DNA from: a virus
Lineage: Duplodnaviria; Caudoviricetes
IMG/VR virus record: IMGVR_UViG_3300040734_000024
Coordinates: 1-50,493 of that record
Direction: 5' to 3' (one strand)
DNA length: 50,493 bases
Numbering within the stretch: position 1 is the stretch's first letter; the number at the start of each line of letters is the position of its first letter. Below are positions 2,424 through 12,870 of the stretch, piece by piece. The notes below the pieces were generated by a model, which saw nothing but the letters and a program-made list of their open reading frames with translations, was not told the origin of the DNA and did not search any database. A program made the translations under genes and the position numbers.

Positions 2424-3592
2424 ATAAAACTATTTGCGCCATTGACCTTTTTTGCGGTGCTGGTGGAACATCGACCGGCTTAATAAAAGCTGCCGAAGCA
2501 CTTGGGTATTCAGTGAATCTAATTGCTATAAACCACTGGCAGGTAGCCATTGCTACTCATTCCCAAAACCATCCGAACGTACAACACCGGTGCGAGAGTT
2601 TAGATAATGTGGATCCCAGGAAAGCCGTACCTGGCGGTCATGTTGACCTGTTGGTAGCTTCCCCTGAATGCACCCACCACAGCCGCGCACGGGGCGGTAA
2701 GCCAATGAGCGACCAATCCAGGGCGTCCGCCTTCCACGTCCTGCGCTGGTGTGAAGCGCTGGACGTGAGCGATGTACTGCTGGAAAACGTACCGGAATTC
2801 ATGGACTGGGGGCCGTTATACAATGACTGCAACTGTGGTGCCGGCACCGATAAGGAAATGAAGTTGCACGACAAAAAATGCCACTGGAATAAACCTATCC
2901 CAAAAATGAAAGGGCGGGTTTACCGGTCGTTCTTAAGCTCGATGCGCGCCCTCGGGTATAAGGTTGAGGCACGCGTGATCAACACGGCGGACTATGGGGA
3001 TCCACAGACCCGTAAACGCCTGTTCATAATGGCGCGCAAGAATAAGAGAATTATCTGGCCTGAACCTACCTACAGTGAGAAAGGAGGGGCAGACCTATTC
3101 GGCGACCACCAGAAGTGGAAAGCCTCCCGCAGTATTATTGACTTTGGAATACCCAGCAAGTCAATTTACGGAAGGAAAAAGCCGCTGGCAAAGAATACGC
3201 TAAAGCGGATCGAAGCCGGATTGCGTAAGTACAGCGGCCTGCCTTTTGTTCTCGGGCAACAATCTTGCGCCTCCCCTCGAAGCGTGGACAATCCTTTACC
3301 TACCGTATCGGCCGCCGGGGCTATTTCTCTCGTTGAACCATTCCTGATAACAACTAATTGGGGAGAGACCAACCGTAGCCAACCGCGCTCTGTAGAAGAT
3401 CCCATGCCGACAATAACGGGTCAGAATTTTGTCGGCCTCGTCCAGCCGTTCATAGTCCAGATGGATTTAGGCGGTAGTTCTCATTCGGTTGACGAACCCA
3501 TGAACACACTTACCAGTGCGGACGCCAGGGGATTATTTGTCAATTTTATTCGAGGGGGATTTTTCACAGGACTCAGGCTTCCTGGGTGTTGA
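2420..3592 (+). CDS. DNA (cytosine-5) methyltransferase, apparently lacking C-terminal motifs IX-X
   Basis: DLFCGAGG, SPEC, LENV, QTRKRLF motifs; repeated TRD-like segments; no GNAV-type motif X seen. Confidence 0.85.
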   Translation: MNKTICAIDLFCGAGGTSTGLIKAAEALGYSVNLIAINHWQVAIATHSQNHPNVQHRCESLDNVDPRKAVPGGHVDLLVASPECTHHSRARGGKPMSDQSRASAFHVLRWCEALDVSDVLLENVPEFMDWGPLYNDCNCGAGTDKEMKLHDKKCHWNKPIPKMKGRVYRSFLSSMRALGYKVEARVINTADYGDPQTRKRLFIMARKNKRIIWPEPTYSEKGGADLFGDHQKWKASRSIIDFGIPSKSIYGRKKPLAKNTLKRIEAGLRKYSGLPFVLGQQSCASPRSVDNPLPTVSAAGAISLVEPFLITTNWGETNRSQPRSVEDPMPTITGQNFVGLVQPFIVQMDLGGSSHSVDEPMNTLTSADARGLFVNFIRGGFFTGLRLPGC

Positions 3593-4750: not shown

Positions 4751-5272
4751 ATGAATATTACACGAATTGATGTCGAACAAACTCCGGGCGGTCTGCTGGT
4801 GCGCGAATGGTTTGAAGGTTGGAACCAAGATGCTACGCCGCCTTGCGACCTTTCCCGAACGGTAAATAAGAACATTGGCTTGTTCATGCTCGACCTGCAG
4901 GACGCCGGTTACACATGCGAAATGGCAGACGGTACGCACGGACGGGCGCTGCGGGGTGAAATCACCCGGATCGACTTTTATAAACAAGCTGACGGTTGGC
5001 GTGTGCAAAAGTACCCGTATGGCTGGACAGCAAAAACCCGTCCTATCCAGGAAGCGGTTTTAGCTGACACAGCCGATGCGCTCCGGTGGTGTAAAGATAA
5101 TGGCTGGGTTGTCCGGGAATGGCCTGGTGGTGCACGAGCGTTCAAAGGGAAACCGTACCCAGTCCGGGACACAGCGGGGATCATGTCGATGCGCCGGAAG
5201 GCAGAAGCTGAGTATTTAGGCGGCCAGACCGGAACGAATAAAATCTTCTTTGATTTTGCTTTCGATTGGTAA
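4751..5272 (+). CDS. Hypothetical protein
   Basis: Strong AGGAGGT RBS, 173 aa. Confidence 0.7.
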   Translation: MNITRIDVEQTPGGLLVREWFEGWNQDATPPCDLSRTVNKNIGLFMLDLQDAGYTCEMADGTHGRALRGEITRIDFYKQADGWRVQKYPYGWTAKTRPIQEAVLADTADALRWCKDNGWVVREWPGGARAFKGKPYPVRDTAGIMSMRRKAEAEYLGGQTGTNKIFFDFAFDW

Positions 5273-5547: not shown

Positions 5548-6294
5548 TTGGAGATGCAAAAAATGACTGAACAGAATTACGCTCTTGTAAGTTTATACCA
5601 CCCCACGGGTGCAAAAGTATCAATCCCCCTTTCGTTAGCTGAAACAATCACAAAAGGACAGGCTTCTTTTTTGGTCGAATCGGTCGATCAACTGGTCGCC
5701 GCCGGCTTCACCGTGAACCTTCCCGGTCTCATGGACGGCGAGAACTTTGAACAGATCGGATTCGCTGTCCGCCGTGAAAAAGTCAACGATGACGGTACGG
5801 TCACCCCGGTAATGGATGTTTACCCTGTGAACGGAAACTTCCGGCTGATCGGTATGTACCTGAACTCCCTTGAGAACATCAAGGCGTTTGAGACCGCTAC
5901 CGGACTGTGCGTCGAAAAAATGCTCTTGTGGGATGGAAGCACTATCGAGCGCGGTAAGAAGCCGGCCACGGACAAGTACGTTACTGCCCTGAAAGCCCCG
6001 GCTAAACTCGTCTGGAAATTCAACCCGAAATGGGAAGGCGACACAGACGACAAGCACCCCAAGCGGTTATTCGTCCGCTGGGAAGGTTTACGCCCGTTGA
6101 ACGGGAACGAAAGCGCACCAGAACCGGTTTCGATGACGGTTGAAGAAGCCGGAGCGGTCAAGACCCCAGGTGGTGCGGAAATCGGCACCCTTAGCCTGGA
6201 TAAACTGAAGACCCTCTCCGCTTCGACCGCAAGCAACGTGACCGATCAAATGCGGGAAGCTGCGAAGATTATCCTGAGCACCAAGACCGCCTAA
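5548..6294 (+). CDS. Hypothetical protein (next to SSB, possibly recombination related)
   Basis: Long ORF in the early operon; function inferred from position only. Confidence 0.7.
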   Translation: MEMQKMTEQNYALVSLYHPTGAKVSIPLSLAETITKGQASFLVESVDQLVAAGFTVNLPGLMDGENFEQIGFAVRREKVNDDGTVTPVMDVYPVNGNFRLIGMYLNSLENIKAFETATGLCVEKMLLWDGSTIERGKKPATDKYVTALKAPAKLVWKFNPKWEGDTDDKHPKRLFVRWEGLRPLNGNESAPEPVSMTVEEAGAVKTPGGAEIGTLSLDKLKTLSASTASNVTDQMREAAKIILSTKTA

Positions 6295-9964: not shown

Positions 9965-10765
9965 ATGCTTCCAACCACCGATCACGAGATATTGCCAGAG
10001 GATGAAATTCAGGCGCTTGTTCAAATCTACCAAAATTGTGAAGATAAAAAATCGGTAGAAGCGAAGGACGCCGCAGATGAGGTCATTGCACACAATGAAC
10101 GTTTGATCCATCGTGTCGCAATGAGCTACATGGCAACCGGATCGTGTGGGGATCAAAGTCTTGATGACCTGAAGCAATGGGGACGCATGGGTATTATCCG
10201 GGCAATGCAGGACTACGACCCGGTCAAATACTCAAACAAGTTCGTCACCTATGCATACCAATGGATACGCATGTTTATTTCGAGATATGGGAAGATCGGG
10301 CAGTCCATTTACTTTTCCGAGCAATCCCACAACATGAAGGCAGTGGTCGGGAAAGCACAAGCCATGTTTATTCAGGAAAACCACAGACCGCCAACGATCA
10401 ACGAGTTGTCTGAAATCACCGGCATTCCTGCAGAAAAAATATCCAAGCTGCACGTAGTTGTATCATCTCTTGATCGTGTAGCCGGCTCTGAAAGTGGGTC
10501 GGAAACCCTTGCTGACCTCATACCGGATGATACAGACACCGAGATCACTTCGGAGAAATCCGTCTTGACCGCTGAGATCATGGGAAAGCTGAGCAAGTTG
10601 CCTGATCGGGAGCAAACAGTAATTACCCACCTGTTTGGATTGAACGGTGAAAAGCCGCTTAGCTTACGGAAAACCGCAAGCCGTATGGGGCTGTCTGCTG
10701 AAGGCGTACGGAAAATAAAGAACAGCGCCATTATCAGATTGCGGGAAAAACAGTTGTTCGAGTAG
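9965..10765 (+). CDS. Phage-encoded RpoD/FliA-like sigma-70 factor
   Basis: DLKQWGRMGIIRAMQDYDP..KFVTYAYQWIR (region 2), region 3 RPPTINELSE, region 4 SLRKTASRMGLSAEGVRKI. Confidence 0.9.
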   Translation: MLPTTDHEILPEDEIQALVQIYQNCEDKKSVEAKDAADEVIAHNERLIHRVAMSYMATGSCGDQSLDDLKQWGRMGIIRAMQDYDPVKYSNKFVTYAYQWIRMFISRYGKIGQSIYFSEQSHNMKAVVGKAQAMFIQENHRPPTINELSEITGIPAEKISKLHVVVSSLDRVAGSESGSETLADLIPDDTDTEITSEKSVLTAEIMGKLSKLPDREQTVITHLFGLNGEKPLSLRKTASRMGLSAEGVRKIKNSAIIRLREKQLFE

Positions 10766-10796
10766 GTGTCCAAAGTAAGCAGGTATTTGTTTAATA
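10766..10796 (+). promoter_or_regulatory. Phage promoter-like motif, copy 6 (heads the RNA operon)
   Basis: GTGTCC-N16-TGTTTAATA. Confidence 0.8.
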
Positions 10797-10819: not shown

Positions 10820-11105
10820 AGCAATAACTGGCAACCAGTAAGCCGAGTAGACGAGTGGAACGGTTCCTCCGATGGATGCTCGTAAAACGTAGAACCCTAT
10901 TCGCATGGTTCCCAGATGTTGTACCAGCTTGTAGTTGATCTCGGTCAAAGACAGCATGTCTAAACTACAAGCTGGTTGATAAGAAACACCGTGTACTGAA
11001 ACAAGATGCTTGAGCGCTGAGATGTTTGAGTGTTGAGGGGTGTTACCAGGGACGCATCCTGGGTGAGCCCATGATCCTACGGGAACCATAAGCACGGTGG
11101 AGCAT
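10820..11105 (+). ncRNA. Putative structured RNA with long-range pseudoknot
   Basis: Pairings 10905-10913/11081-11089, 10923-10936/10963-10976, 10987-10994/11092-11099. Confidence 0.5.
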
Positions 11106-11116
11106 GCGCAAAGATT

Positions 11117-11304
11117 TGGGCGGCGGTGTTAAAACGCGAGTTCCGGGTTCGCCGGGCTTATCGGGTGTGAACACACGCGGTAGGGACGCCCGCATGGGAC
11201 GGACAGCCGTCGTACCGAGGCATATATCTATGGACGCATAGACAAGCCCGCCAGACATTATTTCGGTGCATCCCATAAATCAGGTTCAAATCCTGACCGC
11301 CCAA
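11117..11304 (+). ncRNA. Enlarged tRNA-like RNA (188 nt)
   Basis: Acceptor TGGGCGG/CCGCCCA, T arm TCAGG-TTCAAAT-CCTGA, multi-hairpin interior. Confidence 0.6.
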
Positions 11305-11320
11305 CTTTTGTACGTTATTT

Positions 11321-11439
11321 GGGGAGATCGACTAATAGGCTAGGTCACTGGAACGAAATCTGGAAACTACTGTGAAGTACAAGCAGACTATCCAGAAAGT
11401 AAATTGCCAGAAAAGGACGTTCGAAGCGTTCACTCTCCA
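11321..11439 (+). ncRNA. tRNA-like RNA with extended anticodon arm and G3:U70 pair (119 nt)
   Basis: GGGGAGA/ACTCTCC acceptor, D arm GACT..GGTC, CTGG/CCAG stem with 55-nt insert, T arm GGACG-TTCGAAG-CGTTC. Confidence 0.6.
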
Positions 11440-11451
11440 CAAGACGTGGTT

Positions 11452-11523
11452 GACTTTGTCCGTTCAAACAAGTCTATAAAAATGGTAAGAACGGATAGCG
11501 TCACCTGCTTCAGTGGTGAGACC
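11452..11523 (+). ncRNA. Pseudoknot RNA with pistol-ribozyme-like topology
   Basis: P1 GACTT/AAGTC, loop TGTCCGTTC pairs with GAACGGATA, TATAAA linker, GCG then TCACC/GGTGA stem. Confidence 0.3.
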
Positions 11524-11588
11524 TCTGGCACATAGGCAGAGCGCGACCGCGCTGTAAAAGCGGCGAGCCGGTGGAATGCCGGCACCCC

Positions 11589-11660
11589 TGCGGGATAGAG
11601 AAGCGGTTATCTCGGCTGGCTCATAACCAGCGATCGGTAGTTCGAATCTACCTCCCGCAA
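11589..11660 (+). tRNA. tRNA-Met(CAT), initiator-like D arm and anticodon loop
   Basis: Full cloverleaf; TGCGGGA/TCCCGCA, GCTGG-CTCATAA-CCAGC, GGTAG-TTCGAAT-CTACC. Confidence 0.9.
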
Positions 11661-11667
11661 CAGAGAG

Positions 11668-11946: not shown

Positions 11947-11955
11947 ATGCAAGAA

Positions 11956-12027
11956 GCCGAAGTAGCTCAGTGGCAGAGCAATTGGTTTGTGATCAGTAGG
12001 TCGCTGGTTCGACCCCAGCCTTCGGCT
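11956..12027 (+). tRNA. tRNA-Thr(TGT)
   Basis: GCCGAAG/CTTCGGC acceptor, GCTC/GAGC D stem, loop TT-TGT-GA, T arm GCTGG-TTCGACC-CCAGC; weak anticodon stem. Confidence 0.85.
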
Positions 12028-12132
12028 TTAGACGGTGTAGTGACCGTCGAGTGACTTCTCCTACCCTTGAAGGGCGGTCTCTTGGCGAGGAGCGCCAGGA
12101 GACCGTAAGGGGGAGTTGTTTATCAGGAGACT

Positions 12133-12870
12133 ATGAAAAAAATACTCAGCATCAATGCCCTTTTATGGGTAATTTATATCGCATTACTGGCCGTCCTTTT
12201 TCCTCATACCGCATGGGCGTTCGGGCAATTTGAACCGTCCACCGGGCAGGTATGGGTATCATGGGCGGCCGCTTTGGCGTTTGAGGCCGCTATCGCCGCT
12301 CTTACCCACAAGCTGTCAAAGCACATTGAACAGACACCGAAACGGCTGTCTGCTGGAAAGAAATTCACCTATCGCTATCTAAACGCTTATTCGCTTGGGC
12401 TGGTAGCTGCATTAGGTCTATCTTCACTCGCTAACCTGGCGCATGCGGTCGAGTTCGGCCGCCAGATGGCGATATTCACCGAATGGAATATTCCGTTCGG
12501 TGTTTTTGCTATCTCGTTCGGAGCCATATTACCGCTCATTAGTTTGACCTTCGCTCGGGTTCTCTCGAATGTGGCAGAGACCGAATCGGATGACGACCCG
12601 GAGTTGATCCAGGCGAAGGAAACCATTGGCGACCTTCGCAAACAACTGAGGGAAGCGAACAAGGAAGTTGAGACAGCGAATAAGCGAGCCGATACAGCCG
12701 AAGGTAAGTTCGGTTCAATGGGGGACGTAGTAAATGGCTTGTTCGCTGAGGATAAGCAAAAGCGAATTGTTACCGTACATAACCAGTGGCCGGCACTCAC
12801 CGGATCGGCCATTGCGATCATCGCCGAAAGTTCGCCGGCGTACGTGTCAGAAATCCTGAGCAAGGAATAG
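12133..12870 (+). CDS. Multi-pass membrane protein with coiled coil and C-terminal HTH-like tail
   Basis: About four hydrophobic segments, then a heptad-rich region; AGGAG RBS. Confidence 0.75.
   Translation: MKKILSINALLWVIYIALLAVLFPHTAWAFGQFEPSTGQVWVSWAAALAFEAAIAALTHKLSKHIEQTPKRLSAGKKFTYRYLNAYSLGLVAALGLSSLANLAHAVEFGRQMAIFTEWNIPFGVFAISFGAILPLISLTFARVLSNVAETESDDDPELIQAKETIGDLRKQLREANKEVETANKRADTAEGKFGSMGDVVNGLFAEDKQKRIVTVHNQWPALTGSAIAIIAESSPAYVSEILSKE

Follow-up and report, generated by a model that had tools for sequence, protein, structure and literature searches.

The window analysed here is the whole phage record of 50.5 kb, whose genes include those for an integrase, a terminase, a capsid protein and a tape measure protein (PHROGs, 30 proteins scanned). 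At each end of the record lies a tRNA 3' half, identified by eye as that of tRNA-Leu. The 41-base core of this attachment-site tRNA matched 117 genome stretches; among the 80 matches listed, almost all belong to Chloroflexota, and those listed with names below the phylum level are mostly Anaerolineae. Because the attachment-site core falls mostly in these groups, the window is likely to represent a temperate phage of Anaerolineae, and by the same site Leptolinea-type genomes are its likely host lineage.

The element under study, a tRNA-shaped RNA gene (Table 1), sits in a block of 1.36 kb that contains no likely gene and is flanked by the genes of a phage sigma factor and of a 245-aa protein. 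The block also contains a tRNA-Met, a tRNA-Thr, a second RNA built on the top half of a tRNA (11117–11304) and more hairpins. The cluster is headed by a promoter-like motif, the AT-rich 11-mer of which occurs in seven copies in the window, all on the plus strand and all intergenic on the ORF map (motif copies at 2205, 3612, 5302, 10786, 16282, 16898 and 17786). The motif is found at the same place in the syntenic viral relative L432, which has three copies, and it is a putative phage promoter; a sigma-70 consensus scan returned no site. It may be a target of one of the two phage sigma factors (1421–2113 and 9965–10765).

Table 1. Positions of the element, its parts and its neighbours in the window.
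Feature	Position	Strand	Remarks
Promoter-like motif	10766..10796	+	TGTC core, ~17 nt, then AT-rich 11-mer; heads the non-coding cluster
Neighbouring tRNA-top-half RNA	11117..11304	+	7/7 acceptor pairs, U1:A72, T arm; encloses ~150 nt of hairpins
tRNA-shaped RNA gene (the element)	11321..11439	+	119 nt; T at -1 (11320), CAA after A73
Acceptor, 5' strand	11321..11327	+	G3 = 11323
D arm and 5' anticodon stem of T5-type tRNA-Glu	11327..11354	+	26/28 nt; U13·G22, unusual A32/C33
D stem	11330-33/11343-46	+	4 bp; sequence and fold
Outer stem	11348-51/11407-10	+	Sequence and fold
Insert in place of the anticodon loop	11352..11406	+	55 nt
Inner helix within the insert	11359-64/11391-96	+	6 bp
Outer stem 3' strand and 4-nt variable loop	11407..11414	+	No position 47; A48
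T arm	11415..11431	+	5/5 pairs; non-canonical C52:G62 and G60
Acceptor, 3' strand	11432..11439	+	U70 = 11436; discriminator A73 = 11439
tRNA-Met(CAT)	11589..11661	+	tRNA call; same cluster as the element
tRNA-Thr(TGT)	11955..12028	+	tRNA call; same cluster as the element

The stretch 10820–11090 is non-coding and strongly folded, with nested inverted repeats (10905–13/11081–89 and 10923–36/10963–76), has no Rfam match and is partly covered by contigs of runs X1 and X3; positions 10820–10841 combine a short AT-rich word with a three-codon frame, which we take to be like the resume context of a tmRNA, chance being the likely explanation. The 188-nt RNA at 11117–11304 has several hairpins enclosed by a T arm and a perfectly paired tRNA acceptor (U1:A72, A73), and includes a long-range pairing, 11153–62/11241–50. 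A 304-nt element in phage locus L435 (~2772–3075) is built like this RNA and has a near-identical T arm; the alignment of the two as wholes is not significant (28 of 200 shuffles), and a contig of run X1 keeps both ends of the RNA with a different middle. Immediately 5' of the tRNA-Met, a degenerate tRNA-like element occupies positions 11511–11591; one loop of it contains GTA, and it includes a hairpin resembling a T arm. The downstream 245-aa protein (12133–12870) is hydrophobic in its N-terminal half, belongs to no Pfam or PHROGs family and has 459 homologues, one of them named as coming from an Anaerolineaceae genome.

The element is a tRNA cloverleaf beyond chance: a cloverleaf descriptor run on the window returned exactly three sites, namely the element and the two real tRNAs, and 300 dinucleotide-shuffled windows gave no match. 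The preliminary description had drawn an acceptor with a 7:66 mismatch, a D arm, a CTGG/CCAG stem and a T arm, and had placed a 55-nt insert with an inner helix TCTGGA/TCCAGA where the anticodon loop would be; both the arms and the insert with its helix are recovered in sequence and in fold. Six of the seven acceptor pairs are formed, A7 facing A66, and the stems have pair probabilities of 0.69–1.0 except at 7:66. The folding z-score of the whole RNA is only -2.07, with 8 of 200 shuffles equally good, and the inner helix alone is not significant, at least 6 bp being formed in 94 of 1000 shuffled inserts. The tRNA core invariants U8, A14, G18, G19, A21, G53, U54, U55, C56, A58 and C61 are present, and the element departs from a canonical tRNA at 7:66, R15:Y48, R52 and Y60; it also lacks a 5-bp anticodon stem topped by a 7-nt loop that includes U33. 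The element goes unrecognised by ARAGORN, even when introns are permitted and the threshold is brought down to 70%, and Rfam gave no match at E ≤ 10, including tRNA (RF00005) and RF00023, unlike many other insert-bearing phage tRNA genes, which score 36–56 bits in Rfam tRNA. CCA is not encoded.

The numbering of the acceptor depends on the 5' end. T11320 could pair with A73, which would give an 8-bp acceptor with the G·U moved to 4:69. By the usual 7+5 geometry, position 1 is more likely G11321, which gives G3·U70, and all four of the related tRNA-Glu/Gln loci likewise have a U at -1; the 5' end is not certain, because of this possible pairing and because U1:A72 acceptors are frequent in the phage family. 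In an excerpt of PMC9976931, the bacterial alanine identity set includes A73, G2:C71, G3·U70, G4:C69 and G20, with no anticodon element listed. All four acceptor elements (G2:C71, G3·U70, G4:C69 and A73) are present here, while G20 is missing, its place being taken by C20. Moreover, in Leptolinea-type genomes both tRNA-Ala(UGC) and tmRNA have the same top five acceptor pairs and the same A73. The earlier view of a non-decoding tRNA-like RNA with the acceptor set of alanyl-tRNA synthetase (AlaRS) is supported, and the RNA would probably be loaded with alanine by the host AlaRS after CCA addition. Alanine insertion has been tested for natural irregular tRNAs that carry G3:U70, and certain irregular tRNAs are reported to be charged without being used in translation (PMC5389517).

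The lower half of the body points elsewhere. When viral sequences were scanned for this D arm and stem base, 17 matched; four of the 17 are genuine tRNAs, with tRNA-Glu(UUC) and tRNA-Gln represented twice each. Independently, blastn matched the tRNA-Glu annotated in T5-like phages, at an E of 0.5 that would be weak by itself. The tRNA-Glu(UUC) of Salmonella phage rokbiter (MT074457.1, 85846–85919) shares 26 of 28 nt with the element in its 5' lower half, in an alignment that spans positions 7 to 33 and takes in the odd A32/C33; the inner 3' anticodon stem of T5-type tRNA-Glu agrees at 8 of 8 nt. The D arm, A26, the anticodon stem, A32/C33 and the short variable loop are likewise shared with the phage tRNA-Glu/Gln genes L250, L261, L249 and L254. 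Against the class I tRNAs of a Leptolinea genome, taken from 40 regions of a genome with 48 Rfam matches, the D arm of the element most resembles those of Gln and Glu and is distant from that of Ala. The tRNA-Glu identity set, as given in the same excerpt of PMC9976931, comprises U13·G22:A46, the absence of residue 47, U34 U35 C36, U11:A24 and U2:A71; the element has the first two, and lacks the anticodon UUC, U11:A24 (here A11:U24) and U2:A71 (here G2:C71). In contrast to T5-type tRNA-Glu, 55 nt replace the anticodon, the alanine set is present and no CCA is encoded, and the acceptor and T stems are almost wholly unlike those of the tRNA-Glu/Gln relatives in sequence, although still paired. 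The element therefore reads as the lower half of a glutamate tRNA under an alanine-type acceptor; because acceptors vary widely among these relatives too, a wholesale acceptor swap is not proven. An origin from tRNA-His was rejected: the insert does contain a His-like loop word, but tRNA-Glu accounts for the stem.

Both stem words recur within the insert, the 5' one at 11360 and the 3' one at 11392, a combination found in 21 of 200,000 shuffles, and the two copies form the inner helix. Because it repeats both strands of the anticodon stem, the insert likely arose by local duplication of these strands. A decayed 3' half of tRNA-Glu was rejected as its source, 103–198 of 2000 shuffles being equally good, and no UUC triplet occurs in the 55 nt. 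An intron of the kind reported in phage tRNAs, unexplained in the excerpted text of PMC6784885, would be another way to account for the insert: with 46 nt removed after 37/38, a Lak-type tRNA with a GAA loop and an alanine acceptor would insert alanine at phenylalanine codons. A32, C33 and A37, as found in the loop of T5-type tRNA-Glu, do persist in the first seven insert bases, and one cut restores a canonical arm in 32 of the 62 clusters of an unbiased control. However, no cut in the element passes this canonical test. The best single cut, the 46-nt one, leaves a 4/5 stem with A31xG39 and a GAA loop without U33, and no single excision yields a 5-bp stem with Y32, U33 and R37. A bulge-helix-bulge is not visible by eye at the insert junctions, nor was an insert-free allele found, the tRNA-Glu/Gln genes sharing the lower half only. 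An intron-bearing tRNA is accordingly regarded as very unlikely, with a small probability left to it by the A32/C33 of the ancestor.

No diverged homologue of the element was found in any search run. Its D-arm pattern had no match in viral contigs; a Glu-type body with a long middle had 12 matches in metagenomes, none with acceptor and T pairing; and blastn against phages and plasmids returned no record covering 80% of the element. Among 401 Anaerolineales genomes, DNA comparison gave six short matches, none on the element, and the element pattern was present in none. With the neighbouring genes as queries, the sigma factor led to one distant viral locus and the 245-aa protein to six viral loci and one of the 401 Anaerolineales genomes, only L432 being syntenic over the cluster. 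This relative keeps the helicase, the sigma factor, the motif, the non-coding block, tRNA-Met and the downstream gene, and a counterpart of the element is missing from it (108 of 200 shuffles align equally well), the block being filled with other tRNA-shaped RNAs. In run X1, a 230-nt contig of depth 2 spans 11341–11523 with nine differences and no gaps (95% identical), and another contig joins 11306 to 11579, possibly skipping the element, with weak support (side 30). The refuting conditions set previously thus have a mixed outcome: the near-identical X1 contig keeps the insert length, and L432 is without the element.

The cluster of L432 (4729–6000) carries four hairpins with a common C-rich loop, one of them inside a D-armless tRNA shape (~4796–4865), together with another tRNA shape with an enlarged middle (~5811–5911). 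G-rich ribosome-binding sites are potential pairing partners of the C-rich loops. These hairpins, one of which lies in a tRNA-shaped RNA, are what favours a C4-like, tRNA-scaffolded antisense RNA, in which the body would serve for processing and the insert would pair with an mRNA. RNAs of the C4 type have a complementary target in the phage's own genome; however, the longest match of the element in the rest of the phage genome, on either strand, is 11 nt, which equals the median of 500 shuffles, and an antisense role is very improbable.

The element shares with tmRNA the G3·U70 acceptor, A73 and the T arm, and the preliminary description had suggested a mini-tmRNA-like RNA that might compete for SmpB or EF-Tu or act as a decoy. 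In the tRNA-like domain (TLD) of tmRNA, the D loop is stemless and SmpB binds there (PMC3968760), at the place of the D and anticodon stems (PMC3968760, PMC8012679), according to excerpts of these sources. The D stem of the element has 4 bp with pair probabilities of 0.69–0.84, so that the stemless loop is unmatched. A tmRNA mRNA-like domain (resume codon, tag and stop) and a ring of pseudoknots are also lacking, the element measuring 119 nt against 230–400 nt; none of the three insert frames contains a tag like that of the host lineage, and the only short stop-ended frame, starting at the first insert base, is unlike it. A permuted tmRNA across the cluster was rejected, being seen only at an ARAGORN threshold of 70% and among junk calls. 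The mini-tmRNA reading fails on the intact D stem, the missing tag frame and the lack of an RF00023 match, and competition for SmpB is not supported, since the D and anticodon stems fill the space that SmpB occupies in tmRNA. A variant of this idea, in which the RNA would titrate SmpB and dampen ribosome rescue in the manner of the TLD-only gene of phage DS6A, can draw on an acceptor equal to that of the host-lineage tmRNA over five pairs and A73, and on the existence of such a phage gene, a similar molecule having been reported to inhibit tmRNA (PMC4131195, in part). Yet the full D and anticodon stems stand in the space of SmpB (PMC3968760), the DS6A gene has, by eye, a stemless D loop where the element has a stem, and the D arm is of the tRNA-Glu/Gln type; hence we give this variant very little credence.

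Alanine-marked, anticodon-less tRNA shapes are real and recurrent in phages. When the alanine set was imposed, 107 viral loci in IMG/VR matched, and at least 92 of the 108 matches including the window pair in the acceptor and T stems. A stricter filter left 73 distinct bodies, 66 of them without a nested T loop, in 49 insert clusters; one cut restores a canonical arm strictly in five of these clusters (1.5 expected from shuffles) and loosely in 16 (8.6 expected). Nevertheless, insert-bearing tRNA shapes show no enrichment of G3·U70, and the alanine forms are not special in number. With the acceptor left free, one D-arm type is represented by ~3,800 viral stretches, a tool estimate from 3 of 64 parts; among its 129 matches, 91 paired well and 86 were distinct, with G3·U70 in 2 of the 86, and 31 alanine loci fit the same D-arm pattern, against the ~3,800 stretches estimated. 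The Glu/Gln-type D arm gave 120 matches (75 paired, 70 non-nested) in 27 clusters, none with G3·U70 and four strictly restorable. An alanine-specific lack of introns was therefore rejected: 5 of 49 differs from 32 of 62 (Fisher p 5e-6), but the Glu/Gln bodies stand at 4 of 27. No telling partner protein recurs beside the alanine-type genes in 40 of the 107 loci, where 21 of 78 flanking proteins have a Pfam match. Within the literature searched, which left most subscription journals outside, no alanine-marked, anticodon-less phage tRNA bodies with an intact D arm were found described.

Twelve loci (L005, L015, L025, L032, L033, L050, L055, L065, L070, L080, L092 and L104) combine a near-constant alanine-type tRNA body with unrelated middles; this family often has no other tRNA nearby, and its members are better candidates than the element for a functional alanine-charged mimic. 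A shared hairpin-plus-motif module is found in many viral tRNA genes, namely those of L116, L121, L136, L150, L153, L162, L178, L183, L189, L190, L200, L205, L212 and others, where it interrupts the anticodon stem on its 5' side and is followed by an intact anticodon stem-loop; Rfam gave it only weak YrlA scores. At L021, L023, L035, L041, L047, L091, L094, L098 and L101, G3·U70 acceptors occur together with the stem module and non-alanine anticodon loops, and these genes are possible mistranslating tRNAs if the module is removed.

Our preferred reading, held tentatively and at slightly less than even confidence, is that the element specifies a processed, stable, probably alanylated, non-decoding decoy RNA under relaxed selection. 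The cluster layout and the promoter-like motif, both kept in L432, argue for it, as do the cloverleaf, the alanine acceptor set, the recurrence of alanine-marked shapes in other phages and the gapless X1 contig. Against it stand the lack of a diverged homologue, of G3·U70 enrichment, of G20 and encoded CCA and of a recurrent partner protein, together with the four broken core positions. The cluster would be transcribed from the repeated promoter-like motif as one long RNA, from which host RNase P and 3' nucleases would cut out the element, followed by CCA addition, by analogy with engineered scaffolds: in E. coli, a tRNA body that carries cargo in its anticodon stem undergoes processing and is stable (PMC3753655). 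The host AlaRS, whose bacterial identity set includes no anticodon element, would then charge the RNA, which might occupy host proteins that bind or cut tRNA and would never enter decoding. Cutting of tRNAs by the host, countered by phage tRNAs, is reported (PMC10802454, PMC13096335).

A close rival, quite possible if on balance somewhat doubtful, is a decaying tRNA-Glu pseudogene, in which duplications broke the anticodon loop and G3·U70 would be an incidental wobble in a transcribed passenger of a fast-turnover cluster. The element breaks 7:66, Y48, R52 and Y60 together, unlike the 73 other alanine-type bodies, of which 62 keep all four positions and none breaks all; selection on the fine tRNA core looks relaxed. 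Decay would also fit the failure to match Rfam tRNA at E ≤ 10 where other insert-bearing phage tRNA genes reach 36–56 bits, an insert that resembles a duplication of both stem strands, and the lack of the element in L432 and possibly, across a weak joint, in one X1 contig. On the other hand, every stem still forms, although the acceptor and T stems no longer have the ancestral sequence; the whole alanine set, rather than a single wobble, equals that of the host-lineage tRNA-Ala and tmRNA; and the insert length is kept in the 95%-identical contig. The element is the most degenerate alanine-marked body seen, and, for this reason and since it has no diverged homologue, it is a poor first choice for a functional test.

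A wider proposal, which we consider unlikely, extends the decoy reading to the class: phages would have repeatedly and independently built anticodon-less, alanine-chargeable mimics (at least 49 unrelated inserts in IMG/VR), the element being an alanine acceptor on a glutamate body and acting as a charged decoy against tRNA-targeting defence or tRNA-sensing proteins. Standard tools miss such genes, yet phage contigs would contain insert-bearing tRNA-shaped genes by the thousand, as estimated from one pattern scan. If the alanine-marked, anticodon-less forms were charged decoys, they would constitute a phage counter, at the level of RNA, to tRNA-directed host systems. To this picture the element adds a traceable origin, namely a T5-type tRNA-Glu, a stem duplication and a different acceptor.

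Besides the tRNA-Glu of T5-like phages, four known systems resemble the element in part. The engineered tRNA scaffold (PMC3753655) likewise keeps the acceptor, D and T arms and carries a cargo hairpin in the anticodon stem; it is synthetic, whereas the element is natural and its cargo has no known function. The Lak megaphage tRNAs with 'enigmatic introns' (Devoto et al., PMC6784885) are similarly oversized, with an insert in the anticodon arm, and are missed by bacterial tRNA finders; however, their type and anticodon can be restored and insert-free alleles exist, neither of which was found for the element. Allo-tRNAs and irregular tRNA polycistrons (Mukai et al., PMC5389517) offer clustered irregular tRNAs, some with G3:U70 and some charged yet not translating; allo-tRNAs have 8/4 or 9/3 geometry and an anticodon loop, whereas the element has 7/5 geometry, a 5-bp T stem, a short variable loop and no anticodon loop. 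The TLD-only tmRNA of mycobacteriophage DS6A (PMC4131195, JN698994.1) is, like the element, a phage-encoded RNA with G3·U70, A73, a T arm and no anticodon, and the element is set apart from it, as from the TLD of tmRNA in general, by intact D and anticodon stems, the lack of a tag frame and an ancestry in tRNA-Glu.
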